36,660 bases of DNA from a virus. Of the stretch, positions 1 through 36,024 are shown piece after piece. Position numbers and translations under genes: made by a program. The notes beneath the pieces were generated by a model. The model worked only from the letters and a program-made list of their open reading frames with translations, made no database searches and was not told where the DNA came from. Positions within the stretch are counted from its first letter, which is position 1. Every line of letters starts with the position of its first letter. Location of the stretch: UHGV virus genome UHGV-0183637, one strand, 5' to 3'.

Positions 1-491
1 TCATGGGAGATACCTTCCATCAGGCAACCATCACCCATAAACACATAAGTGAAGTGATCGACAATCTCATGATCCGGCTGGTTAAACTGCGCCGCCAGCG
101 TGCGTTCTGCTATCGCCAGTCCGACTGCGTTCGCCAGCCCCTGACCCAGCGGCCCCGTGGTGGTTTCCACACCCGGCGTATAGCCAATCTCCGGGTGACC
201 TGGTGTTTTTGAATGTAGCTGACGGAAGTTCTTCAGCTCTTCCAGCGGCAGGTCATAACCGGTCAGATGCAGCAAACTGTAGAGCAGCATCGATGCGTGA
301 CCGTTAGAGAGAATAAAGCGGTCGCGATCATACCAGGTCGGGTCGGTGGGGTTATGTTTAAGAAAATCGTTCCACAACACTTCGGCAATATCGGCCATGC
401 CCATCGGCGCGCCGGGATGACCAGAATTGGCTTTTTGCACCGCATCCATACTGAGCGCGCGAATCGCATTGGCAAGGTCTTTTCGGGACAT
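1..491 (-). CDS. tktB: Transketolase, N-terminal part (gene continues beyond window start)
   Basis: Minus-strand translation from ATG (complement of 489-491) reads [40 protein letters not shown]...[11 protein letters not shown], a recognisable transketolase N-terminus. Open to the window edge, so absent from the ORF track. Sits 19 bp downstream of the transaldolase gene, as in the talA-tktB operon. Confidence 0.85.
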
Positions 492-510: not shown

Positions 511-1116
511 TTACAGTTTGGCGGCAAGAAGATCTTCCAGTTTGCGTTGATCGACAGCGAACAGGCGGATGCCTTCAGACAGTTTTTCTACCGCCATCGC
601 ATCCTGATTGTGTTCCCAACGAAATTCCGCTTCGCTCATAGGGGTAGGGCGCGGGAAATGCTGAGAAGGCGGGATTAATTTACGTACCACCGGCGAGACT
701 TTTTCCTGCAACTCTTTCAGCAAGTTCGGCGCGATGGTCAGACGGTCACAACCGGTTAAAGCGAGGATTTGCTCGGTACGGCGGAAACTTGCGCCCATCA
801 CGATGGTTTCGTAACGGTGCTGTTTATAGTAGTCGTAGATATTGCGTACTGATTTGACGCCCGGATCTTCTTCTACCACATATGGGTCCATTGGTTTGCG
901 CGCCTGATACCAGTCATAAATACGGCCCACAAACGGTGAAATCAGAAAAACGCCTGCTTCTGCGCAGGCTCGTGCCTGAGCAAAGGAAAACAGCAGCGTC
1001 AGATTGCAATTAATACCTTCTTTTTCCAGCTCTTCTGCCGCGCGAATTCCTTCCCATGTCGAAGCCAACTTGATCAGAATGCGTGACTTCTCAACGCCCT
1101 GCTGCTGGTACAAATC
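511..1116 (-). pseudogene. talA: Transaldolase, 5'-truncated by prophage insertion (C-terminal ~200 codons intact)
   Basis: Track ORF 511..1236 matches transaldolase from [43 protein letters not shown] to the C-terminal AAKL. The first ~40 residues of the ORF ([21 protein letters not shown]...) are not transaldolase-like and are read through the prophage end. Confidence 0.8.
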
Positions 1117-1125
1117 TGTGGGGTA

Positions 1126-1147
1126 GTGATCAATTCTGGGCGGAGTT
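1126..1147 (+). repeat. Putative transposase end-binding site, copy 1 (core TTCTGGGCGG)
   Basis: GTGATCAATTCTGGGCGGAGTT; core repeated at 1208 and 1259 in direct orientation, within 160 bp of the inferred prophage end. Confidence 0.45.
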
Positions 1148-1201
1148 CGTGCAGCCTGGTAGAACCTGCAAGCCTTGTGTGGCGCGGGGTGTGGTGATTT
1201 A

Positions 1202-1222
1202 GTGTGATTCTGGGCGGATTTG
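1202..1222 (+). repeat. Putative transposase end-binding site, copy 2
   Basis: GTGTGATTCTGGGCGGATTTG; core TTCTGGGCGG at 1208..1217. Confidence 0.45.
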
Positions 1223-1254
1223 TGAGAAATGACCAAAAACGCTTTTTTTTGCGC

Positions 1255-1274
1255 TTTTTTCTGGGCGCTTTTGA
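1255..1274 (+). repeat. Putative transposase end-binding site, copy 3 (degenerate)
   Basis: TTTTTTCTGGGCGCTTTTGA; core TTCTGGGCGC at 1259..1268. Confidence 0.35.
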
Positions 1275-1428
1275 TCTGGTTCTGCTACAAACTTAACGGG
1301 TTTTAAATGCTTTTAAAAAGTGTTTTATCCTTGCCCGTTTTCCTCAATTTGTTCTCATCTGTTGTGTTCGCTTTTGTTGTGGTTATTGCTGATTAGCTAA
1401 CAGCACACGCCCCGCCAAAACGAGGCGC

Positions 1429-2055
1429 TCATGCTGATTTCTTGTTTACAGGCTTAGTTTCTTGCTCCGGTGTGACGGGAACGCGATCACCTGGTGTTCC
1501 TGCTCGGATACAGGATTTGGCGCGTTGCAAAATCTCTTTGTCAGTTTCTTCATTACCAGCCAATGCCACGCAAATGGCCTCTTTTAGAGAGTCCCTTATG
1601 TTTAAGTTACGTATAACAGTTTCTATGTCTGTTTCTACTGACGTAGCCAGCCGATTCAAAATCCCTTTTACACCAATTTCTGATGCTGCTATCGCTAACG
1701 CTTTTCGATCCTTACTACTCACAAATCCTAACAATGAAACGATTAACGCAACAGAATCATCGTCGCAATCGAACTTTGGTTCGATTTTTTCATAATTATT
1801 CGAATCATTGCCTTGTGGTTGTTCTCCTGTCAGTAGCCACATAAGTGAAACACCACAGGCATCGGCAACCCTTGCTGCGCTATCAATGGTTGGGTAACTA
1901 TCTCCCCTTAGGTATTTCCTGACAGATGCTTCAGATAAGCCACTACGGCGAGCAATCTCACTTTTGTTTAGCCCCCCCATCGCTTTTTCCAGTCTTTCGC
2001 CAAAGCGTACTATTTGCTCATTATGAAAAGTACGATCATGTTTAATTGATGTCAT
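1429..2055 (-). CDS. Prophage repressor, XRE/lambda-CI-type HTH with uncharacterised C-terminal domain
   Basis: 208 aa. N-terminal HTH segment LNKSEIARRSGLSEASVRKYLRGDSYPTIDSAARVADACGVSLMWLLTGEQ. Leftward-transcribed and divergent from ner-A-B, the position of Mu c. GGGAGA RBS-like sequence upstream on the minus strand. No obvious S24 peptidase motif in the C-terminal half. Confidence 0.8.
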   Translation of the reverse strand: MTSIKHDRTFHNEQIVRFGERLEKAMGGLNKSEIARRSGLSEASVRKYLRGDSYPTIDSAARVADACGVSLMWLLTGEQPQGNDSNNYEKIEPKFDCDDDSVALIVSLLGFVSSKDRKALAIAASEIGVKGILNRLATSVETDIETVIRNLNIRDSLKEAICVALAGNEETDKEILQRAKSCIRAGTPGDRVPVTPEQETKPVNKKSA

Positions 2056-2237: not shown

Positions 2238-2507
2238 ATGCAGTTGTTGAGACAAGATCTAACCGACCTGTTTGTTCGTCGCGGTCATGACTGGTCAGCA
2301 ATGGCGATTCAAACGGCGTTAAAAAATAAAGGGATTGATTTACCCTCGCTGGAAAAAGCACAGGGATTGAAACCCGGTTCCATGCGGAATGTGTTTTATC
2401 GACCGTGCTCCAAATACGAACAGGTAATTGCCCAGGCTGTTGGCGTAACGCCTGATGTGATTTGGCCAAGTCGCTATTTGCATGAGACATCGCAAATAGC
2501 GGTGTAA
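2238..2507 (+). CDS. ner: Ner-like DNA-binding transcriptional regulator
   Basis: 89 aa ending ...GVTPDVIWPSRYLHE, matching the conserved VIWPSRY signature of Mu Ner and E. coli Nlp. GAGAGGA RBS 7 nt upstream. Sits directly upstream of the transposase gene. Confidence 0.85.
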   Translation: MQLLRQDLTDLFVRRGHDWSAMAIQTALKNKGIDLPSLEKAQGLKPGSMRNVFYRPCSKYEQVIAQAVGVTPDVIWPSRYLHETSQIAV

Positions 2508-4577: not shown

Positions 4578-5471
4578 ATGAGTTTAATTACGCAATTAAA
4601 TGACGTAATGGCCCGTCGCGGCTATACGCAAACCCACGTCGCCCGTGCTATTGGTCGTAGCAGCGCCGTTATCAACCAGTATTTACAGGGTAAATATCAG
4701 GGCGATATGGCTGATATTGAAGAACGCATTTCTGCCTTTGTGACCCGTGAGCGGGAAAAGGAAAACAGCCGCCGTATTAAAGCGAAATTTGTTGCCACCG
4801 GTATGGCTGCCAAAGGACTGGAGGTGTTGGCCTATGCTCACCTGGAATGTGAAATCTGCGTACTGTATGGCGCGGCAGGTCTTGGCAAAACAATGATTCT
4901 GCGTGAATACGCCGCCAGAAACCGGGATGCGGTCCTGATTGAAGCCGACCCGGGCTATACAGCCAGAACACTGCTTGAGGAGTTGTGCCGCCAGCTGGGG
5001 GTAAAGGTTCGCGGCAACATTCACGAACTGATAGATGCCTGTGTGCGCGAACTGCGTGATTCCGGTCGCCTGCTGATGGTGGACGAGGCTGAACTGCTCC
5101 CCTATCGCGCACTGGAGGTTCTGCGTCGTCTGCATGACAAAGCGGGTATCGGGGTTGTCCTGGCGGGTATGCCTCGTCTTCTGATTAACCTTAAGGGGCG
5201 TCGTGGTGAGTTCGCCCAGTTATACAGCCGTGTGGCGCTGGCGCTTAACCTGGGCGATACGTTGTCGCAGGAAGATTTTAACCAGATAGCTACCGGGTTG
5301 ATGCCGGAAGCAGCAGAACCGGAAATCAGCGAGGCGCTTTACGCACGCTCGCTGGGTAATGCCCGCCGCCTCTTCAAACTGGCGCGCGGTGTGTACCGGA
5401 TTTGTGATATCAGCGATGCACCGGTCAGTGTGCAGGCCATTGATAAATTCGCAGAAATGTTAATTCACTGA
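4578..5471 (+). CDS. Transposition ATPase / target DNA activator (MuB-like AAA+)
   Basis: 297 aa. N-terminal HTH-like segment (GYTQTHVARAIGRSSAVINQY), Walker A GAAGLGKT, Walker B LLMVDEAE. Immediately downstream of the transposase gene. Confidence 0.85.
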   Translation: MSLITQLNDVMARRGYTQTHVARAIGRSSAVINQYLQGKYQGDMADIEERISAFVTREREKENSRRIKAKFVATGMAAKGLEVLAYAHLECEICVLYGAAGLGKTMILREYAARNRDAVLIEADPGYTARTLLEELCRQLGVKVRGNIHELIDACVRELRDSGRLLMVDEAELLPYRALEVLRRLHDKAGIGVVLAGMPRLLINLKGRRGEFAQLYSRVALALNLGDTLSQEDFNQIATGLMPEAAEPEISEALYARSLGNARRLFKLARGVYRICDISDAPVSVQAIDKFAEMLIH

Positions 5472-14732: not shown

Positions 14733-15053
14733 ATGAAACAAAAAGAAAACACCGCGATTGCACTGGTGGAAGCCGCTGTTCCCGGGCGTCCCTTTAAGTT
14801 CGGACTGACGCAGGTTGTGGCTTTGCACGTCAGCGGAGAATGCGGGGAAATTAAAGCCCGTACCCAGTATGCAGATGGTGAAAACCGTTATCTGGTTTAT
14901 TACCAGGACGCCCGCAAGGCAGCACAGCTGAAATGGTTTGGCGAGTCCATGCTGGAAATGATTGAGGATATCCGCCATCCCGGAATGCCTGTATTTGCAG
15001 TCACCGAACTACCTGATGGCGCAACGGTTTCAGATACCCGGAAGGGCGTTTGA
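14733..15053 (+). CDS. Hypothetical protein
   Basis: 106 aa; between lysis and terminase genes. Confidence 0.55.
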   Translation: MKQKENTAIALVEAAVPGRPFKFGLTQVVALHVSGECGEIKARTQYADGENRYLVYYQDARKAAQLKWFGESMLEMIEDIRHPGMPVFAVTELPDGATVSDTRKGV

Positions 15054-15553
15054 TGGCGTGGTCACAGGATATCAGGGACAAAGTCCGTAACGGGTACATC
15101 TTTGACCAGCTTCCGCTGGATATCGTCGCCATGAAGTACGCCGTGCCGCACGACACCGCGCGGCGCTGGAAAACGCAGGCGATGAAGAACGGCGACGACT
15201 GGGACAAGCTGCGAGCCGCGCACGCGCTCGCCGGTGACGGGCTGGAAAGTGTCGCCCGCACCGTGCTTATCAGTCTGGTGGTGAAGTGTCAGACGACGCT
15301 TGAACGGCTGAACCAGAACCCGGACATCCCGCCGCAGGAGTCCGTCGAACTGCTGGCGAGTCTGTCTGACAGTCTCAGTAAGGCGGTGGCTAGCAGCAAA
15401 AAAATCCTGCCGGAAACCGACCGGCTCGCCACGGCACTGGAAGTGGTGCAGCGGCTCGGCGCGTTCATCAAGGAGCGTCACCCGGCACAGTATGCCCCGT
15501 TTCTTGAGGTGCTCGAAGGCTTCGCTAAAGAGCTTGAGGATAATTTCAGTTAA
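15050..15553 (+). CDS. Putative terminase small subunit (Mu gp27-like)
   Basis: 167 aa immediately upstream of the terminase large subunit; N-terminal region looks DNA-binding. Call is by position and size. Confidence 0.5.
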   Translation: MMAWSQDIRDKVRNGYIFDQLPLDIVAMKYAVPHDTARRWKTQAMKNGDDWDKLRAAHALAGDGLESVARTVLISLVVKCQTTLERLNQNPDIPPQESVELLASLSDSLSKAVASSKKILPETDRLATALEVVQRLGAFIKERHPAQYAPFLEVLEGFAKELEDNFS

Positions 15554-15605
15554 CCACAGCGGCCCGGTTTTCCGGGCCGTCTGATATTTGTATACCAGGT
15601 GTGAC

Positions 15606-17246
15606 GTGGCAAAACGTAAACTTTCCATTAAAGAGTTTCAGAGAAGCTTACAGGAGTACATCGCCAACCTCCGCCAGACCATTGAGGCTGAATGTCTGGG
15701 GTTCGATGTTAACCCGCAGGCCACACAGGCCCGCCGGGCGGCAGTCTGCGACCCGGTGACGGGCTACGATTATTTTGTCGAAAACTATTTCCCGCACTAC
15801 GTCCGCAACCCGGCAAAAAGCGAGCTGCATAAATACCTGTTCATCCGTCTGCCACAGGTTGTGGCAAGCCCGGACCCGGAGAACGACGCCATCGCCGCCC
15901 CCCGTGGTGAAGCAAAATCCACGCTGGTGACTCAGTTGTTTACCCTGTGGACCATTATCCGGGGTATTAAGCATTATCCGGTCATCATTATGGACAGTAT
16001 CGACCAGGCTTATCCGATGCTGGAAGCCATCAAGGCTGAACTGGAATTTAACCCCCGTTTAAAAAACGATTTCCCGGAAGTGTGCGGGCAGGGTCGCGTC
16101 TGGCGTATGGGGACCATCGTCACGGCCAACAATATCAAGGTGACGGTTGCCGGTAGTGGTAAAAAGCTGCGTGGCCTGCGCCACGGTCCGTACCGTCCTG
16201 ACCTGGTCATCCTCGACGACATCGAGAACGACGAGATGGTGCGTAACCCGGAGCAGCGCGACAAGCTGCATGACTGGCTCACCAAAACCGTGATGCCGCT
16301 GGGTGAGGCTGGCGGTAAAACCGATATTATTTATATCGGGACCATTCTGCATTACGACTCCGTACTGTCGCGCACACTCAATAACCCGATGTGGAAAACA
16401 GCCCGCTTTAAGGCCGTTATTCAGTGGCCTGCCAATATGAAGCTGTGGGACGAGTGGGAAGAACTCATCCGCAACAAACAGCCGGAAGCGGCGGAGGCAC
16501 TTTACCGGCAGAACGAAGCCGAGATGCTCGCCGGGTCGGTGGTGTCATGGGCGGCGCGCCCCCTGCTGGCACTGATGAAAATCCGTGTCCGTGACGGTCA
16601 CGACACCTTTGATTCTGAATACCAGAACGACCCGGTCAGCGGTGAAGACGCGCTGTTTGCGGGCTGCATTAAGTTCTGGGTTAACCGTCTTGATGAATGG
16701 GTGTTCTACGGCGCTGTTGACCCCAGTCTCGGGAAGAAGAATAAAAACCGCGACCCGTCGGCCATTCTCGTGGGGGGCTTTAACCGTTTTACCGGCATTC
16801 TGGATGTGGTTGAAGCCGATATCCGCCGACGTCTGCCGAATAAACTTATTGAAGACGTGATTAAGTATCAGCGGGAATACCACTGTCTGTGCTGGTCGTT
16901 TGAGTCCGTTCAGTTTCAGGAGTTTCTGCGTACCGTGCTGGTTGAGCGTTCGGCGGCGCTGGGCGTGCCGGTTCCGGCGCTGCCGGTCATCCCGCTGGAG
17001 GATAAGGCGCTGCGCATTGAGTCCCTTCAGCCGCATATGGCCAATGGCCTGATTCGTATCAGCCACACACATCAGACGCTGATTGACCAGCTGCGCCACT
17101 ACCCCAAAGCCGACCACGATGATGGCCCGGACTGTCTGCACATGCTGTGGACACTGGCGGTGTCGCGCAGCGCAAAATTTCAGATACACACCCCACGCAG
17201 CACCGGGCGTGACTGTGGCGGACGTTTTGGTTCAGGAGGATGGTAA
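15606..17246 (+). CDS. Terminase large subunit (Mu gp28-like)
   Basis: About 547 aa; GTG at 15606 after AGGTG (track TTG start 15588); size and position upstream of the portal gene; acidic motifs (LVILDDIEND) consistent with an ATPase/nuclease. Confidence 0.8.
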   Translation: MAKRKLSIKEFQRSLQEYIANLRQTIEAECLGFDVNPQATQARRAAVCDPVTGYDYFVENYFPHYVRNPAKSELHKYLFIRLPQVVASPDPENDAIAAPRGEAKSTLVTQLFTLWTIIRGIKHYPVIIMDSIDQAYPMLEAIKAELEFNPRLKNDFPEVCGQGRVWRMGTIVTANNIKVTVAGSGKKLRGLRHGPYRPDLVILDDIENDEMVRNPEQRDKLHDWLTKTVMPLGEAGGKTDIIYIGTILHYDSVLSRTLNNPMWKTARFKAVIQWPANMKLWDEWEELIRNKQPEAAEALYRQNEAEMLAGSVVSWAARPLLALMKIRVRDGHDTFDSEYQNDPVSGEDALFAGCIKFWVNRLDEWVFYGAVDPSLGKKNKNRDPSAILVGGFNRFTGILDVVEADIRRRLPNKLIEDVIKYQREYHCLCWSFESVQFQEFLRTVLVERSAALGVPVPALPVIPLEDKALRIESLQPHMANGLIRISHTHQTLIDQLRHYPKADHDDGPDCLHMLWTLAVSRSAKFQIHTPRSTGRDCGGRFGSGGW

Positions 17247-17249
17247 TTA

Positions 17250-18845
17250 ATGGCACAGCTTGTTGATATTTACGGACGCCCGCTGAAACGTGAGGCACTC
17301 AAAACCACGCAGTCGGTCAGAGTGGCGGAACGGCTGCGCATTTATCCAGACCACCCGTCGCGTGGTCTGAACATCAGAAAACTGCCGCGCATTCTGGAAG
17401 CTGCCGAACGCGGTTATCTTCCGGCGCAGGCGATGCTGTTTGCGGATATGGAAGAACGTGATGGCCATCTGTTCGCTGAAATGGAAAAGCGCAAAAAAGC
17501 GTTGCTGACGCTGGACTGGTCGGTGGAGCCGCCCCGCAATGCCTCGAAGGCAGAAAAGGAGCTGGCTGCCGCCGTGGATGAATGGCTGCACGGCATCCCG
17601 GACATGGAGGACATCATCCTCAACGGGATGAGCAGTGTCGGTTATGGCTTCAGTTGTCAGGAAATCAGCTGGGCGTTCGTGGATAAAACGTGGTTACCGG
17701 ATGCGGTGACGCTGCGACCGCATAACTGGTTTATTACCCTGCCGGAACACAATGACGAACTCCGGCTGGATGACGGCAATCGTGGGGAAGATGGTAAAGA
17801 CGGTTCCGCGCTGTGGCCGTTCGGCTGGCTGGTTCACCGTTACAACGCCCGGTCGGGGTTCCTGGGTTCGTCTGGTCTGTTTCGTGTACTGGTCTGGCCG
17901 TATCTGTTCAAAAACTTTGCGCTGCGTGATATGGCAGAATTTCTGGAGATTTACGGTCTTCCGGCGCGCATTGCTTACTATGCACAGGGCACCAGTGACG
18001 AGGACCGGGACAACATTCTTGAGGCGCTGGTCAATCTGGGGCATGAAGCGGTGGCAGCCCTGCCGCAGGGTAACGAAATTGAGTTCAAGGAGGCCGCATC
18101 CGGCGGACCGGAGGCGTTCATGTCGATGGTGGAATGGGCAGAGCGTACCACCTCAAAAGTGATTCTGGGCAGTACGCTGACCAGCCAGGCCGACGGTAAA
18201 ACCTCCACCAACGCGCTGGGTAATGTGCATAACGAGGTCAGGCACGACATTCTGGCCGCCGATGCGCGCCAGCTGTCCGGCATGTTCAGCAGCCTGATAC
18301 AGATGATGGCCAGCCTGAACGGCTGGCAGGATATCCCGCCACGCCGTCTGCCGCGTCTGGTGTTTGATGTGCAGCAGGAGGCCGACATTAAGGGCGTGGC
18401 GGAAGCCGTCAGCGTGCTGGTCAACAATGTGGGAATGAAGGATATCCCGGTGTCGTGGGTACGCAAAAAAACCGGTATCCCCACACCGAAAGACGGCGAA
18501 GAGGTACTGGTGCCGGTGGCACAGCGTCTCCCTGTGCAGGCGGGCCTCAGCCAGCTGCGTGAGCGGCTGAATGTTGCCGCGCTCAGTCAGCAGGACAACG
18601 GGGAGGACGACCCGGCACAGCGCGCCATCGACCGGGCAGAGCTTCCGGCAGAGGCCATCGCGCAGGGGATGAACGAACTGGTGGCCCCACTGGTGCAGGC
18701 CATACAGGAAGGCCGGGATGCAGACGAGGCCATGAACGTACTGGCGGAAGCCTGGCCGGAGCTGCCGGATGACACGCTGCGGCAGTTGCTGACGCAGGCA
18801 TTCTTTGTGGCGGATATCTGGGGGCGACTGAATGCCGACAGCTGA
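17250..18845 (+). CDS. Portal protein (Mu gp29-like)
   Basis: 531 aa directly after the terminase gene and before the F-like head morphogenesis gene. Confidence 0.8.
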   Translation: MAQLVDIYGRPLKREALKTTQSVRVAERLRIYPDHPSRGLNIRKLPRILEAAERGYLPAQAMLFADMEERDGHLFAEMEKRKKALLTLDWSVEPPRNASKAEKELAAAVDEWLHGIPDMEDIILNGMSSVGYGFSCQEISWAFVDKTWLPDAVTLRPHNWFITLPEHNDELRLDDGNRGEDGKDGSALWPFGWLVHRYNARSGFLGSSGLFRVLVWPYLFKNFALRDMAEFLEIYGLPARIAYYAQGTSDEDRDNILEALVNLGHEAVAALPQGNEIEFKEAASGGPEAFMSMVEWAERTTSKVILGSTLTSQADGKTSTNALGNVHNEVRHDILAADARQLSGMFSSLIQMMASLNGWQDIPPRRLPRLVFDVQQEADIKGVAEAVSVLVNNVGMKDIPVSWVRKKTGIPTPKDGEEVLVPVAQRLPVQAGLSQLRERLNVAALSQQDNGEDDPAQRAIDRAELPAEAIAQGMNELVAPLVQAIQEGRDADEAMNVLAEAWPELPDDTLRQLLTQAFFVADIWGRLNADS

Positions 18846-19998
18846 CGATGTTGACCTGGGTTATGCGTACACCCTGAAACCGGAAGAAGCGATTAAGTAT
18901 TTCGAAAGCAAGGGATACGTTATCGGCTTCCGCTGGCACGATGTGAAGGACATCGCACACGCCCGGGCGTTCACGGTGGCGGGCGTGCTGAAACTGGATG
19001 TGCTGAAGGATATCCGTGATGGCCTGACGGCGGCACTGGCTGACGGCGGGACGTTCCGGGAGTTTGCTGCACAACTGGAGCCACTGCTGGAATCAAAAGG
19101 CTGGCTGGGTAAACGGCTGATTGTGGACGAGGACACCGGCGAACTGCACGGCAGGCAGCTGATGCCGCGCCGGTTACGCACGATATTTGATACCAACATT
19201 CAGTCGTCATATAACGCCGGGCGTTATCAGCAGCAGATGGCGAACGTGGCCGACCGGCCTTATTTTGAGCGCGTGGCAGTGATGGACCTTCACACCCGCC
19301 CGAAACACGCCGCCCTGAACGGTTTTACCGCCCGGGCGGATGACCCGCTCTGGACGTATTTCTACGCGCCGGACGGATACGGATGCCGCTGCCGTATCCG
19401 GGCGCGTTCGGCGTCTGATGTGGAGAAATACGGCCTGACGGTGCAGAGCAGCGAGGGGCGACTGGTTGAGGTTGAGCAGGAATATGGCCAGCCAGGCCAG
19501 ACCATCAGAACAATGGGGCTGAAGATGCCGGACGGCTCCGTGTATACCGCTGACCCGGGCTTCGGTTTTAACCCCGGCAAAGTGGCATGGCAGCCGGAAC
19601 TGGAAAAATACGATTACCGCAGCGCCCGCCAGTATGTCACCGGCACCCTGACCGGGCCGGACTTTGCCCGGGGGCTGGCGAACGTCAGCGAACTGGATGC
19701 GCGCCAGCGGTATCCACTGGCCATCCGTTCGCCGGAACAGGTCGCCGCCACGGGCGCTGCACGACAGACGGTAAACCTTACGGCTGACGTCATGAAGCGC
19801 CTCAGTGCAACAGACACGCCCCCGACCGCCGCCGACTATGTGCTGATGCAGCAGACCATCGAACGGGCGGAGCATGTCACGCAGGACGGCAACGCGTGGC
19901 GATATGCGTTACAGTCGGGCGACAGCTGGTCAGTGGCGACGGTTGAGGATGACGTGCTGACAGACTGGGTTATGCAGGACACCCCGGAGGCATCATGA
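18832..19998 (+). CDS. Head morphogenesis protein (Mu F / gp30-like)
   Basis: 388 aa; overlaps the portal stop; position and size match Mu F. Confidence 0.8.
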   Translation: MPTADDVDLGYAYTLKPEEAIKYFESKGYVIGFRWHDVKDIAHARAFTVAGVLKLDVLKDIRDGLTAALADGGTFREFAAQLEPLLESKGWLGKRLIVDEDTGELHGRQLMPRRLRTIFDTNIQSSYNAGRYQQQMANVADRPYFERVAVMDLHTRPKHAALNGFTARADDPLWTYFYAPDGYGCRCRIRARSASDVEKYGLTVQSSEGRLVEVEQEYGQPGQTIRTMGLKMPDGSVYTADPGFGFNPGKVAWQPELEKYDYRSARQYVTGTLTGPDFARGLANVSELDARQRYPLAIRSPEQVAATGAARQTVNLTADVMKRLSATDTPPTAADYVLMQQTIERAEHVTQDGNAWRYALQSGDSWSVATVEDDVLTDWVMQDTPEAS

Positions 19999-20546
19999 GC
20001 AGCGGTAAACTGGATATTAAGATTGATTTAAGCGCGTATAACACCACGCTGGGGAAACTGATTAGTTCCGTGAAGGACCGGCGCGACCTGATGACGGCGC
20101 TTGCAGGCTCCATGCTGGATGCGGTTGAGACTAACTTTGAACAACAGGGTCGCCCGAAATGGATGGGCTGGAGTCCGGCTTATGCGAAGCGACGCGGCCC
20201 CGGGCAAATCCTTCAGAAGTCCGGGCGACTGGCTGCCAGTATCCGCTCTGCGGTTAACAATAACGAAGCCACGGTCGGGACAAACGTCCGTTATGCCCGT
20301 ATCCACAACGAAGGCGGCGAAATCCGCCATCAGGCACGGACGCAGAACCTGTATTTTAAACAGTACAAAAACGGCAGCGTCAGCAGCCGTTTTGTGAAAA
20401 AGCGCAACAGTAATTTTGTGCAGAGCGCAACGGTCGGAGCGTATACAGTCAACATGCCCGCGCGTCCCTTCCTTCAGCTTGTGCAGGACGACATCGACGA
20501 GCTGGAGAACACCGCAAACCGCTATTTTGCGCGTGTGATTGACTGA
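19995..20546 (+). CDS. Virion morphogenesis protein (Mu G-like)
   Basis: 183 aa; ATGA overlap with the F-like gene; Mu G position. Confidence 0.75.
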   Translation: MSSGKLDIKIDLSAYNTTLGKLISSVKDRRDLMTALAGSMLDAVETNFEQQGRPKWMGWSPAYAKRRGPGQILQKSGRLAASIRSAVNNNEATVGTNVRYARIHNEGGEIRHQARTQNLYFKQYKNGSVSSRFVKKRNSNFVQSATVGAYTVNMPARPFLQLVQDDIDELENTANRYFARVID

Positions 20547-20701
20547 ATGACCAGAAACGCGCTGTAATCGCCTGTGACAACATAAACGCCTCACGGATGA
20601 GGCATAACAGCACTGCACCCCGTAAATGCTGTCAGAATCGTTTTTAAAAGGGTTTTAAAAACGGTTTTATTTCCCCTTTTATCCTTTCGCGTTATGGCAG
20701 G

Positions 20702-20714
20702 GTGCTGAACACCC
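20702..20714 (+). promoter_or_regulatory. Conserved 13-mer GTGCTGAACACCC, copy B (putative late promoter upstream of the protease/scaffold gene)
   Basis: Exact 13-mer in a 200-bp intergenic gap inside the otherwise compact head operon, 33 bp upstream of ATG 20747. Confidence 0.5.
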
Positions 20715-20746
20715 TCCACAGTACCCCGTGCTCCCCTTCCGTCATC

Positions 20747-21871
20747 ATGCCGCGTATGAAGATGAACATTGCGGCATTAAGCCTCGAAATCACCAAAGCA
20801 ACCCACAGCGAAATCCAGCTGTTTCCGGCAGGCGAGTTCAGCGCAGTGGATGGTCGCCCACATACCGATGAAGTCGAAAGCGGTAAATGGGTGCTGACTG
20901 CCGAACTGGCCGCGCAGCTTGTCGCACAGGTGGCAGCCCGTACCACGCCTTTTGTCATTGATTACGAACATCAGACGCTGCGCGCCGTAAACAACGGCAA
21001 GCCCGCCCCGGCGGCGGGCTGGTTCAGCCAGGTGGAATGGCGTGAAGGTGTGGGCCTGTATGCCATCGGTGTGGAGTGGACGGAGAACGCGGCGGCCATG
21101 ATTGCCGCCGGTGAGTACAAATTTATTTCCCCTGTTTTTGCCTACAACAAGCGCGGCGAAGTGCTGGAGCTGTTACATGCTGCGCTGACCAATACCCCGG
21201 CGCTGGACGGTATGGACGCGGTCATGCTGGCTGCGGCCAGTCGTCTGGCGAGTCTGTCAACTGAAACGGAGACCACAACGGTGGATGAAGAACTGTTAAA
21301 CAATTTGCTTTCCGACCTGCGCTGGATGCTTAACCTCCCGGTGACCTCAACGGCGGAAGATATCAAAAACGAGCTGCAAAAGGTCGTTGACATGATTTCG
21401 AACGGTCAGGGAACGGCGGCGGCATCCGTCAGCCTGCTGGCCCTGCTGAATCAGAAAGACGAGCAAATCGCCAGCCTGTCAGCAAATGCCTATGACCCGA
21501 CGAAGCATATCCCTCTGACGGCATATGAAGAACTTCAGGGGCGTTATGCCGCACTGGCGCAACAGTCCGGTGAGGCCGAAGCCGGGGCACTGATTCAGGC
21601 GGCGCTGTCTGACGGACGCCTGCTTCCGGTACAGGAAGACTGGGCGAAAGATTACGCCAGCCGCGATATCAACGGTTTTAAAACATGGCTGGAAAAAGCG
21701 CCGAAAATTGACGCGCTCAGTCAGACCCAGACCGGCGGCAAGCCACCCAAAACGCCGTCGCCTGCCCCGGCGCAGATTAAAACCGGCGATGACGTCGATG
21801 TCGATATCGCCATTTGTTCAATGATGGGCGTCGATCCAGAGGATGTCGCCCGTTACGCAGGAGACGAGTAA
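20747..21871 (+). CDS. Head maturation protease/scaffold protein (Mu I-like)
   Basis: ATG at 20747 (the track's GTG at 20702 lies inside the promoter-like 13-mer); about 374 aa; position between G-like and major head genes. Confidence 0.75.
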   Translation: MPRMKMNIAALSLEITKATHSEIQLFPAGEFSAVDGRPHTDEVESGKWVLTAELAAQLVAQVAARTTPFVIDYEHQTLRAVNNGKPAPAAGWFSQVEWREGVGLYAIGVEWTENAAAMIAAGEYKFISPVFAYNKRGEVLELLHAALTNTPALDGMDAVMLAAASRLASLSTETETTTVDEELLNNLLSDLRWMLNLPVTSTAEDIKNELQKVVDMISNGQGTAAASVSLLALLNQKDEQIASLSANAYDPTKHIPLTAYEELQGRYAALAQQSGEAEAGALIQAALSDGRLLPVQEDWAKDYASRDINGFKTWLEKAPKIDALSQTQTGGKPPKTPSPAPAQIKTGDDVDVDIAICSMMGVDPEDVARYAGDE

Positions 21872-22267
21872 ATGGATCGCAATACCCCCTACCGTGACGG
21901 CGAACTGAATCCGGTGCCGGTTGCCGCTACGACCGAAATTTTTGGTGGTCATATGGTGGCCGTTAACGCATCCGGTTATGCCGTTCCGGCCAGTGCCACG
22001 GCCTCACAGATTACGCTGGGCGTGTCTGATGGCTGGGTGGATAACAGCAAGGGCAGCAATGGCGACGCCACCGTTCTGGTGCGTTGTGGCAAAGCCTTTC
22101 TGATGGCGAACAGTACCTCAGACCCGGTCACGCAATCGCAGGTTGGTCAGGAATGCTACGTGGAAGACAGCGTGACCGTGGCAAAAACCGACAACAGCAG
22201 CGCCCGTCCTGTCGCCGGGAAAGTGATCGGCATCGGTGACGATGGCGTCTGGATTCATTTCAGTTAA
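21872..22267 (+). CDS. Hypothetical head protein
   Basis: 131 aa between the I-like and major head genes. Confidence 0.6.
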   Translation: MDRNTPYRDGELNPVPVAATTEIFGGHMVAVNASGYAVPASATASQITLGVSDGWVDNSKGSNGDATVLVRCGKAFLMANSTSDPVTQSQVGQECYVEDSVTVAKTDNSSARPVAGKVIGIGDDGVWIHFS

Positions 22268-22277
22268 GGAGCAAAAC

Positions 22278-23186
22278 GTGTTAGTCAACGTTAAAAACGT
22301 CAAACAGATTTTTATCAATCTGAAGGCCACCTTCCAGAAAGCCTTCGACCAGTCACCAACTGACTGGCAGAAGGTGGCAATGGAAGTGCCATCAAACGGC
22401 AAGGAGAACGACTACAGCTGGTTAAGTCGTTTCCCGAAAATGCGCGAGTGGATTGGTGACAAGGTCGTCAAATCACTGGCGGCATTTAACTACACCATCC
22501 GTAACAAGGACTGGGAAGCCACGGTTGAAGTCGATCGTAACGACATCGAGGACGACCAGATTATGGGCTATGCCCTTCAGGCAAAAGGCGCCGGACAGTC
22601 GGCGGCAGAACTCCCGGCAGATATTGTGGCGTCCCTTATCAGTAACGGTTTTACCAATCCCTGTTACGACGGTCAGATGTTCTTTGATACCGACCACCTG
22701 GTCGCCGGTAAATCGGTGTCCAACAAAGGTACCAAAAAACTCAAAGTTGGCTCGCTTGCCGAGGCGAAAGCCTCCTACGGTGCCGCCCGTACGGCCATGC
22801 GTAGTCTGAAAGATGACGAAGGCGCATCCCTCAAAATTCGCCCGAATCTGCTGGTTGTGCCACCGGCGCTGGAGGATGACGCGAACTACCTGATGACCGC
22901 CGAGAAGTTCCCGGACGGCACGCCGAACCCGTACCGCAATACCGCCGAAGTGCTGGTGATGCCGGAGCTGGCGTCGGATTCTGCGTGGTTCCTGTTTGAC
23001 ACCACCAAACCGGTGAAACCGCTGATTTATCAGCTGCGTAAAAAGCCTGTTTTTGTGGAGCAGACGGACTACAACAGCGACAACGTGTTCAAGCGTAAGA
23101 AGTTCCTGTTTGGTGCCGAAGCGCGCTGTAACGGCGGTTACGGCTTCTGGCAGATGGCATTTGGTTCAGATGGTACGACGGAGTAA
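22278..23186 (+). CDS. Major head subunit (Mu T-like)
   Basis: GTG at 22278 after AAGGAG (track start 22236 is upstream in frame); about 302 aa; position and size of Mu T. Confidence 0.8.
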   Translation: MLVNVKNVKQIFINLKATFQKAFDQSPTDWQKVAMEVPSNGKENDYSWLSRFPKMREWIGDKVVKSLAAFNYTIRNKDWEATVEVDRNDIEDDQIMGYALQAKGAGQSAAELPADIVASLISNGFTNPCYDGQMFFDTDHLVAGKSVSNKGTKKLKVGSLAEAKASYGAARTAMRSLKDDEGASLKIRPNLLVVPPALEDDANYLMTAEKFPDGTPNPYRNTAEVLVMPELASDSAWFLFDTTKPVKPLIYQLRKKPVFVEQTDYNSDNVFKRKKFLFGAEARCNGGYGFWQMAFGSDGTTE

Positions 23187-34709: not shown

Positions 34710-35590
34710 TGCAGAATTTAATGACTCCGGTTAATACACCGGACAAGTTATTTCATGATGGTGACCCGACTCAGGGGATAGAGGGAACCATTGTTACCGC
34801 TGAATATATGAATAATCATCAGGAAGCAACGCGCGATTTGCAGCAGGAGGTGATTAACGTCCTTAAAGAGGCTGGCGTAACCCCGGATCCGAAAAAACAA
34901 AACCAGCTGGTTGAGGCGCTGACCTCGTTTATTGGCCAGAAAGTCCCGGATGCATCGCTGACGCAAAAAGGCGTAGTGCAGCTTAACAGTGCTGTTAACA
35001 GTGAATCAGAAACAGAAGCAGCCACGCCCAAAGCGGTAAAAATTGCGATGGATAACGCAAATGCCAGACTGGCAAAAGACCGTAACGGCGCAGATATCCC
35101 GAATAAACAATTGTTTCTGGATAACATCAGCGGTGTGCCGAAAGCGCGTAAGGTCAACGGCATGGCCCTGACTTCGGATATCACCATCAACAGCATCAGC
35201 GGCAACGCCGGAACGGCAACCCGCCTTCAGACGGCCCGCAGGATTAATAATGTGCTCTTTGACGGCTCCGGCGATATCACGATTTCTGCGGGAATGTCAC
35301 AAACTGAAGGTGACAACCGTTACCAGCAAAAAAACACGGCGTCAAAAGCCGGTAATGGCTGGTTTAAGGACACGTCCACCGGGGTGATTATTCAGTGGGG
35401 GTATCTCGGCAATGCCGGTGCCGGGCTGACGTTTCCGATATCATTTCCGTCAGCATGTACCAGCATCACTATTACCAACGCATATACCCGTGCTGATTAC
35501 TCTATTTCCCTGAAATCATTATCAGCAGCAGGTGCGACATTCAACAGCGAGAATAACGGCGTTATGTACTGGACAGCGATAGGGTATTAA
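34709..35590 (+). CDS. Tail fibre protein
   Basis: 293 aa; contains ...SETEAATPKAVKIAMD..., the ATPKAVK-type motif common in enterobacterial phage tail fibres. Confidence 0.8.
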   Translation: MQNLMTPVNTPDKLFHDGDPTQGIEGTIVTAEYMNNHQEATRDLQQEVINVLKEAGVTPDPKKQNQLVEALTSFIGQKVPDASLTQKGVVQLNSAVNSESETEAATPKAVKIAMDNANARLAKDRNGADIPNKQLFLDNISGVPKARKVNGMALTSDITINSISGNAGTATRLQTARRINNVLFDGSGDITISAGMSQTEGDNRYQQKNTASKAGNGWFKDTSTGVIIQWGYLGNAGAGLTFPISFPSACTSITITNAYTRADYSISLKSLSAAGATFNSENNGVMYWTAIGY

Positions 35591-36024
35591 TGATGACTAT
35601 TTATTTCAGCCCATCAACAAACGGTTTTTATCATTCTGACCTTCAGAATGATTATGAAAATGCGGGAACGTGGCCTGGTGATTTACAGAAAATCACGGAT
35701 GAAGAATATCAGAGACTGTTACAGGGTCAGACTGACGGTTTTATTATTGTATCCGGCGAAAACGGATATCCGGTATTAAAAGAACCCGTAATTAACTGGC
35801 AGCAGAAAGCGGAAACGCAACGCCAGCACCTGCTGGCTGAAGCAAGGGAAATCACCTCCGACTGGAAAATCGAGCTGGAGCTGGGCACCATCAGCGATGC
35901 AGACAAGGGACGCCTGACACAGTGGATGATGTATATCAGGGAGGTAAAGGCGCTGGATTTAAGTCAGGTCAGTGATAAATCTTCCTTTGATTTAATTCAG
36001 TGGCCGGAAAAACCTGACGTGTAA
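35590..36024 (+). CDS. Tail fibre assembly protein
   Basis: 144 aa; start overlaps the fibre stop; N-terminus MMTIYFSPSTNGFY typical of fibre assembly chaperones. Confidence 0.8.
   Translation: MMTIYFSPSTNGFYHSDLQNDYENAGTWPGDLQKITDEEYQRLLQGQTDGFIIVSGENGYPVLKEPVINWQQKAETQRQHLLAEAREITSDWKIELELGTISDADKGRLTQWMMYIREVKALDLSQVSDKSSFDLIQWPEKPDV

Follow-up and report, generated by a model that had tools for sequence, protein, structure and literature searches.

The stretch of DNA analysed here (the window, 36,660 nucleotides of the virus genome UHGV-0183637, read on one strand) starts in bacterial genes, continues into phage genes, and contains a transaldolase gene that is broken where the two meet. 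The locus therefore raises the question of what kind of element has entered the gene, at which base, and by what mechanism. The junction and its surroundings comprise the following features.

1-491, minus strand: tktB (transketolase 2), of which the window holds the 3' part; 91% identity to the E. coli tkt downstream of tal
511-1116, minus strand: talA 3' fragment, codons 116-316 plus stop, from translation and alignment to intact talA
1113-1116: predicted left copy of the target duplication, AATC, from the 4-bp rule in 13/13 relatives (see below)
1117-1280, plus strand: prophage left end, a 5'-TG terminus with three direct TTCTGGGC repeats, candidate transposase-binding sites
1117-36660, plus strand: Mu-like prophage, left ~35.5 kb; the ~3 kb beyond the window would hold the rest of a tail fibre gene, a DUF4376 chaperone gene and the right end

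The minus-strand translation of 511-1116 is the C-terminal part of TalA, ending ...AAKL*. The open reading frame runs on to 1236, and the 40 residues upstream of the talA part show no similarity to TalA in translation, as a preliminary description of this locus had stated. The same description placed the end of the transaldolase similarity at about 1117 and proposed alignment to an uninterrupted talA; with the intact genes of E. coli and E. ruysiae the break can be fixed to the base. Intact E. coli talA is collinear with the window in a base-by-base alignment up to 1116 (...GGTACAAATC), and from 1117 the two are unrelated, the window reading TGTGGGG where E. coli reads CACCAGA. Intact talA of E. 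ruysiae reads ...GGTACAAATC|CACCAGATGACG..., with the break at 1116|1117. Window positions 1-1113/1116 are matched at ~91% identity in 5426 of 5426 complete E. coli genomes (in genes annotated tal and tkt), and in 0 of the 5426 does the match continue past 1116. An intact talA 5' region contiguous with 1117-1236, which had been named as an observation that would count against an insertion, is absent from these genomes, and none of them carries this element inside talA. For the truncated gene, gene callers report a 200-aa TAL_FSA protein with a TTG start at 1113, which is carried by only 4-5 contigs; a 241-aa gene call is not on record by exact protein look-up. In two loci that are 100% identical to the window (L018 and L020), a full 667-aa transketolase is called beside the truncated talA. 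talA lies upstream of tktB in the window, and both sequence identity and position fit an Escherichia talA whose residues 1-115 fall outside the window.

Base 1117 is the left terminus of the element (5'-TGTGGGGTAG...), from which the plus strand reads TGTGGGGTAGTGATCAATTCTGGGCGG and then enters Mu-type genes. The start 5'-TGTGGGG at 1117, followed by phage genes, had been proposed from the letters alone and is upheld; the genes encode a repressor, a Ner-like protein, a transposase and a MuB-like ATPase. Direct repeats of TTCTGGGC occur at 1134, 1208 and 1259, and the motif appears only twice more in the other 35 kb of the window. Counted from the terminus, the motif starts at nucleotide 18 on the left, and in relatives it recurs, inverted and at the same spacing, at the right end. 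This layout is as expected for end-binding sites of a transposase, a role that the repeats may well have. The right terminus in relatives is ...CGCGAAGTTACA-3' (ending ...GTTACA, with the motif inverted). A right end in ...CA-3', as anticipated in the preliminary description, is therefore found in the relatives and not for the window copy, whose right end lies outside the window. A weak terminator-like hairpin (1258-1235, minus strand) is located between the repressor gene and the left end.

The phage portion of the window carries the following genes and regions.

1429-2055, minus strand: repressor (c-like), transcribed towards the left end; Pfam HTH_3 and Phage_CI_repr
2056-2237: putative divergent regulatory region between the repressor and ner genes, with AAAAGTACGAT and TTATCGA repeats (D1, D4, I2, I7)
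2238-2507, plus strand: Ner-like DNA-binding protein; Pfam HTH_35, 70.6 bits
2517-4559, plus strand: Mu-type DDE transposase (A), 680 aa; Pfam Mu-transpos_C and HTH_Tnp_Mu_1
4578-5471, plus strand: MuB-like AAA+ ATPase (B); Pfam AAA_22, 81.5 bits, and TniB, 29.9 bits
11263-11760, plus strand: GemA-like protein; Pfam GemA, 67.7 bits
12334-12801, plus strand: Mor-type middle/late transcription activator; Pfam Mor, 29.1 bits
13244-14532, plus strand: lysis cassette of two holin-family genes and a GH108 endolysin, by synteny with annotated E. coli relatives (L011, L013)
15588-23186, plus strand: head genes (large terminase, portal, head morphogenesis, protease, gpT), from Pfam and the annotation of relatives
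17250-18845, plus strand: Mu-type portal; Pfam Portal_Mu, 321 bits
22236-23186, plus strand: major head protein gpT; Pfam Mu-like_gpT, 318 bits
24832-36024, plus strand: contractile tail and baseplate, from Pfam families of 100% identical loci (L004, L006)
35590-36024, plus strand: Caudo_TAP chaperone; Pfam, via L004 and L006
36073-36660, plus strand: second, long tail-fibre gene, of which the window holds the 5' part; it continues in L004 and L006

The transposase scores 61.6 bits against Mu-transpos_C (cut-off 21.7) and 30.2 bits against HTH_Tnp_Mu_1 (cut-off 23.3), with a weak rve match; among solved structures it weakly matches the MuA core (1bcm/4fcy, E about 4e-4). The MuB-like ATPase gene follows directly downstream, and a DUF3164 gene is listed between it and GemA. 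The tail and baseplate genes encode a sheath, a tape measure, a DNA circularization protein, Mu gp44-48 homologues, a tail fibre and the Caudo_TAP chaperone. Together, the Mu-type transposase, the MuB-like ATPase and the Mu portal and gpT bear out the original reading of a Mu-type transposable prophage that interrupts talA with its left end at 1117. Between 2001 and 2237, AAAAGTACGAT is present in several copies in both orientations, some of them just inside the repressor gene, and three TTATCGA-type repeats spaced by 13 nt form a 29-nt imperfect palindrome; a promoter-like site lies at 2148-2177. Both kinds of repeat are, to judge from sequence, likely operator sites. The total length of the element is estimated at ~38.5 kb by combining the L004 extension with the right ends of two relatives (L002, L011), and by analogy with L002 and L014 its right end is expected ~80 bp after the DUF4376 gene. 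In E. coli relatives a DNA methyltransferase gene separates the DUF1804 gene from terL (L011 15494-16234). The window seems to lack it, as the terL ORF (15588) comes right after ORF 15050-15553 in the ORF list (window 15050-15590).

Related prophages occur in 60 of the 5426 complete E. coli genomes, with 85-97% identity over the first 3.9 kb, and a few chance flank matches apart, the similarity in those 60 starts at window position 1117. Counting E. coli genomes and draft assemblies, the same terminus is present at at least 30 distinct, unrelated host flanks. The 27-nt terminus TGTGGGGTAGTGATCAATTCTGGGCGG is identical in the host genes aslB, tktB, eutC, ypdF, yfcC and fliH, in a TonB-receptor gene and in a PAAR/Rhs gene, and the same terminus is also found at the intergenic positions yeiP-yeiQ and yjfJ-yjfK and in genes of other prophages. 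Exact look-up of the repressor protein leads to prophages in draft assemblies that encode the identical protein and share the terminus at eight further host contexts. At aslB, tktB, eutC, ypdF and fliH the two halves of the interrupted gene flank the element of the relative as pseudogene fragments in the NCBI annotation. Because the same terminus abuts many unrelated sites, the element transposes without a fixed attachment site, in agreement with the near-random insertion previously suggested for it, and the lineage has been mobile recently.

E. coli prophages with both ends cover 82-92% of the window prophage at 94-95% identity, and the mosaic gaps relative to them fall in the early region and the fibres. 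In one relative, SA53-3, just 13.5 kb separate the left end from the right, evidence that the lineage undergoes internal deletions. One E. coli insertion lies in tktB, adjoining talA (L015, E. coli AH19B041, a blood isolate, NZ_CP196316.1, 5447-42977), and another lies in eutC (E2348/69, NC_011601.1, 2715935-2751670). As to the distribution of sites, eutC is roughly 20 kb from the talA target on the K-12 map, and once the flanking genes are placed on K-12, some 11 of the 19 sites mapped lie in the interval from about 1.8 to 2.6 Mb. Such clustering could reflect a regional bias of insertion or survival, or chance.

Both junctions are readable in 13 family members, and all 13 have a 4-bp target duplication. 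The duplicated bases are AGAT (aslB), CTGA (yeiP/yeiQ), AAAG (yjfJ/yjfK), ATAT (tktB), CGCT (ypdF), CATT (TonB-receptor gene), CACT (eutC), GACA (yfcC), AGTA (PAAR gene) and ATTG (fliH), together with GGAG, ACTT and CTGG. For 8 of the 13, neither side allows a fifth matching base; in the remaining 5 an apparent fifth match arises only if the terminal A of the phage itself is counted. Empty sites read accordingly: intact tktB has a single ATAT (CAACATATTTGTACC), and aslB rebuilt with a single AGAT matches intact aslB of many genomes at 140 of 140 bases. Given the 4 bp of all 13 relatives, the expected repeat at talA is AATC (1113-1116), and the 5-bp repeat AAATC (1112-1116) predicted in the preliminary description has to be given up.

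The scars recognised for such phages measure 5 bp in Mu and 6 bp in B3 (PMC8705779). Text searches of the literature yielded no publication in which a 4-bp duplication is tied to Mu-like phages; the records of it that were found are GenBank feature annotations. In two records of Stx phages with an inserted Sp18-like Mu phage (LC727895.1 and LC727881.1), a 4-bp 'duplication due to insertion' is annotated by the depositors. Inspection confirmed these duplications as AGAG and CATC, with termini TGTAACC...GCTATA. The 4-bp duplication is therefore not new, since depositors had already annotated it for a related E. coli Mu-like lineage. The balance of evidence leans somewhat towards a large Escherichia Mu-like clade, comprising the window lineage and the Sp18-like phages, that transposes with a 4-bp stagger, as opposed to the 5 bp of Mu and the 6 bp of B3.

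Identity of the host segment is 91.1% to E. coli and 92.4% to the E. ruysiae representative, which sets the host apart from both species. When an E. coli-type TalA N-terminus is placed before the C-terminal 201 residues of the window, the result matches exactly a transaldolase of Escherichia marmotae (P0335), which is present on 293 contigs. On this match the host of the prophage is assigned to a gut strain of E. marmotae. The left junction and 12 kb are 100% identical in a contig held by ENA and NCBI (ERZ1304533 NODE_26, 149,706 bp) and in JGI contig 3300056420, and gene calls place it also in a contig that Logan assembled from run ERR260238. The junction is 100% identical across four public assemblies (ENA, NCBI, JGI and Logan). 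The last 11 kb of the window are 100% identical in an ENA scaffold named KARL13-1, and NODE_26 is computed to end within a few tens of bases of the last base of the window. Judging by their names, the assemblies with the junction probably all derive from one human-gut sample or metagenome that was assembled several times. ENA assemblies ERZ1304533 and ERZ28599375 are ascribed to that sample. Since a single sample is probable, the junction is replicated across assemblers and not across biological samples.

Rightward extension does not reach the other end of the element. Contigs that are 100% identical to the window (L004 from ENA, L006 from JGI and L008 from Logan) stop 1-3 kb after the window end, in the fibre/DUF4376 region, and the right junction and the talA 5' part were found neither in the window nor in any matching contig. 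The pattern AACGCGAAGTTACA-N0-12-CACCAGATG gave 0 matches in JGI metagenome contigs and 0 in IMG/VR, the looser pattern CGCGAAGTTACA-N0-1-AATCNACNAGNTG gave 0 in JGI metagenome contigs, and the left junction pattern gave 0 in IMG/VR. A JGI assembly does hold the left junction, and the JGI collection that was scanned may or may not include that sample. TalA residues 1-117, used as a query for homologues, retrieved only fragments that were frameshifted or lay at contig ends, and no cluster representative was a junction product. Nor did the searches with TalA 1-117, DUF4376 and full-length TalA lead to a junction contig, the full-length query yielding only 90% cluster representatives.

The proteins expected from the interrupted 5' part differ between a 4-bp and a 5-bp duplication. 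With 4 bp, the 5' fragment would read ...CAT CTG GTG GAT TTG TAA and give a 117-residue product ending HLVDL; with 5 bp, translation would continue as ...HLVDFVTSRFFLG and give 125-aa products. In a 15-billion-protein collection the exact 117-aa protein (P0201) is present on 46 contigs from Logan and ENA sources, and the six 125-aa variants looked up are all missing. The 117-aa product lacks specificity: the same protein would result from a nonsense mutation in codon 118 or where a contig ends, and P0201 occurs on more contigs than the left junction. P0201 is weakly indicative of the 4-bp model.

The DUF4376 chaperone at the end of L004 is identical to P0154 over 59 readable residues, and in a DUF4376 homologue search P0154 was the only fetched match to share these 59 N-terminal residues. 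In other E. marmotae, P0154 and a ~1040-aa tail-fibre gene belong to a prophage with a P2-type tail by the trp operon (L026-L035, 6858-10579). The fibre/DUF4376 module is probably repeated within the genome of the present strain, and its sharing with another resident prophage is the probable reason why the assemblies stop in the fibre region. By comparison with the 13 relatives, the talA 5' part should lie just beyond the right end. A 78-nt right-end-like sequence has matches in 628 of the 5426 E. coli genomes, mostly at 80-90% identity. In O157:H7 PV15-279 a degenerate right-end copy (...AACGAAAAAGTTACA) lies just after a DUF4376 remnant (L054, 43400-43495). The 44-kb O157:H7 segment that contains it was considered as Sp18 and rejected; it is a lambdoid prophage at ompW with a right-end relic at its end. 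Such an arrangement suggests past movement of the fibre-chaperone module, along with a Mu-like right end, from one type of prophage to another.

The locus is very probably the product of insertion by DDE transposition, with a 4-bp stagger, of a Mu-like temperate phage into talA of E. marmotae. A member of a lineage widespread as Escherichia prophages would have entered at codon 116/117. If the chemistry follows that of Mu, the 680-aa transposase would bind the TTCTGGGC repeats at both ends and expose the 3'-OH of the terminal ...CA on each strand, while the adjacent MuB-like ATPase would capture the target DNA. Joining of both ends to target phosphates staggered by 4 bp, followed by gap repair, would leave the direct repeat AATC, its left copy occupying 1113-1116 and its right copy following ...CGCGAAGTTACA, ~3 kb past the end of the window. 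The right junction would then read ...CCAGAAAAAAACGCGAAGTTACA or ...GAAGTTACA, followed by AATC and CACCAGATG..., and lead into the 5' codons of talA and then maeB. The leftward-transcribed repressor would keep the prophage silent, and talA would be broken into two pieces, with 117 codons on the 5' side and 201 on the 3' side.

An arrangement in which the right end no longer adjoins the talA 5' part, which would be lost or located elsewhere, is improbable. It could arise by replicative transposition, or by recombination between two prophage copies or via the shared tail-fibre module, with deletion or inversion of adjoining DNA. The internal deletion in SA53-3 and the second prophage type near trp, whose fibre/DUF4376 module would be a substrate for recombination if the strain carries it, lend this reading some weight, as does the right junction that none of the scans of JGI metagenome contigs and IMG/VR returned. 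However, those negative scans may only reflect what the collections contain, and an assembly break induced by the repeat accounts by itself for the missing contiguity. Moreover, every one of the 13 relatives examined at both ends retains the two halves of its target and shows a clean 4-bp duplication.

A chimeric join made during metagenome assembly, with talA intact in the real genome, is far less probable still and was rejected. The source does appear to be a metagenome or MAG, and all carriers of the junction may be one sample, but the identical junction is present in four different assemblies, in a contig where more than 100 kb of host DNA leads up to it and 35 kb of phage DNA follows. The join also falls exactly at the first base of a terminus that recurs in over 20 independent insertions, a position that a random misjoin would not hit. 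Least credible of all is site-specific integration with talA as the attachment site. The position inside a gene is its one argument and there is nothing else, whereas the element has no integrase gene at either end and encodes a Mu-type transposase and a MuB-like ATPase. The same element also sits at dozens of unrelated sites, and 0 E. coli genomes have it in talA. This explanation was rejected, being refuted by the diversity of sites.

Insertion by a Mu-like phage being the preferred reading, its relation to Mu itself can be considered. The order of a leftward repressor, ner, A, B, a semi-essential region, GemA, Mor, lysis genes, a portal/gpT head and a gp44-48 tail is that of Mu. Further features common to both are TG...CA termini with several transposase-site repeats and occupation of many unrelated sites, including the inside of genes, with a short target duplication, the right end and the two copies of the duplication being seen in relatives only. 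In contrast, Mu duplicates 5 bp (PMC8705779) and the window lineage 4 bp. The invertible G segment, gin and mom of Mu were not seen in the relatives of the window lineage, in which the right end comes directly after the DUF4376 chaperone gene. The marks of Mu sensu stricto (Mu/D108/SfMu), namely a 5-bp duplication and similarity to Mu, were not found, while Mu-type morphogenesis genes (Portal_Mu, gpT, gp44-48) and a Mor/GemA regulatory module are present. The early region has no DNA-level match by megablast in a collection of 50,697 phage genomes. The closest transposases in that collection have 40-48% identity over >89% of their length, with none above 48%, and belong to VW-6B (Pseudomonas), ST405-OXA48phi1.1 (Klebsiella), vB_YpM_Tongde (Yersinia), Sp18-like phages, vB_MhM_3927AP2 (Mannheimia) and SuMu (Haemophilus). 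Those of D3112/B3-like Pseudomonas phages have about 30% identity, and the Mu transposase is absent among the 25 best matches listed. The element is thus Mu-like in architecture and family and no close relative of Mu, and its lineage is distinct from Mu, D108 and SfMu.

The prophage in eutC of E2348/69 (EPEC O127:H6) and about 50-60 similar ones in complete E. coli genomes belong to the same lineage as the window prophage. The E2348/69 element shares a 304-bp left end at 97% identity, the termini TGTGGGGTAG...CGCGAAGTTACA, a 4-bp duplication (CACT) and a split host gene; the E. coli prophages, that of E2348/69 included, differ in host species, target gene and the mosaic early region and tail fibres. 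The Sp18-like Mu-like phages of STEC (Mu_JNE122137 in Stx phage LC727895.1) are likewise transposable with a 4-bp duplication, but their transposase is 44% identical and their termini are TGTAACC...GCTATA, ending in TA as opposed to CA. Insertion sites of these phages are variable and include other prophages (PMC10132054). Two copies in Stx phages (L055 1594-40930 and L056 2678-42645) have 5'-TG...TA-3' ends and a 4-bp duplication. SuMu, 3927AP2, VW-6B, ST405-OXA48phi1.1 and Tongde are Mu-like myoviruses with the closest transposases among sequenced phages, although all of these are <50% identical to that of the window; the papers on SuMu and 3927AP2 hold no target-duplication data. The window prophage is an ordinary insertion of a known kind of element, whose lineage is already present in many sequenced E. 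coli genomes.

Within talA, the split falls before a conserved stretch of 11 residues that is kept in the 3' fragment. By homology to TalB, this stretch presumably holds the catalytic Schiff-base lysine, so neither talA fragment is expected to be functional. tktB is presumably also affected, being separated from the promoter upstream of talA that is presumed to drive both genes. The repressor gene points outward towards talA'-tktB, and read-out from it into these genes is uncertain because the weak hairpin at 1258-1235 intervenes. In E. coli, talA and tktB encode minor isozymes, TalB and TktA being the major ones. With TalB and TktA as the main isozymes, the insertion is probably close to neutral. 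Frameshifted TalA proteins of 127-128 aa with the same out-of-frame tail (...RRRAIWWTCISNKALRNHAF) are found in many public Escherichia datasets (P0009-P0076), one variant on 39 contigs, and talA appears to have been inactivated repeatedly in nature.

talA in this strain of E. marmotae is a pseudogene made by a mobile prophage, and annotation should treat the pair of talA fragments, with the ~38-kb element that separates them, as one insertion event. Such prophages are rarely assembled whole, as a tail-fibre module shared with resident prophages breaks contigs before the right end. Where prophage finders or curators look for Mu-like elements by 5 or 6 duplicated bases, they will set the ends of this common Escherichia lineage wrongly, as its scar is 4 bp. 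If the stagger is fixed in these distant relatives of MuA, they would offer a natural comparison for how the geometry of the transpososome sets the spacing of target sites.
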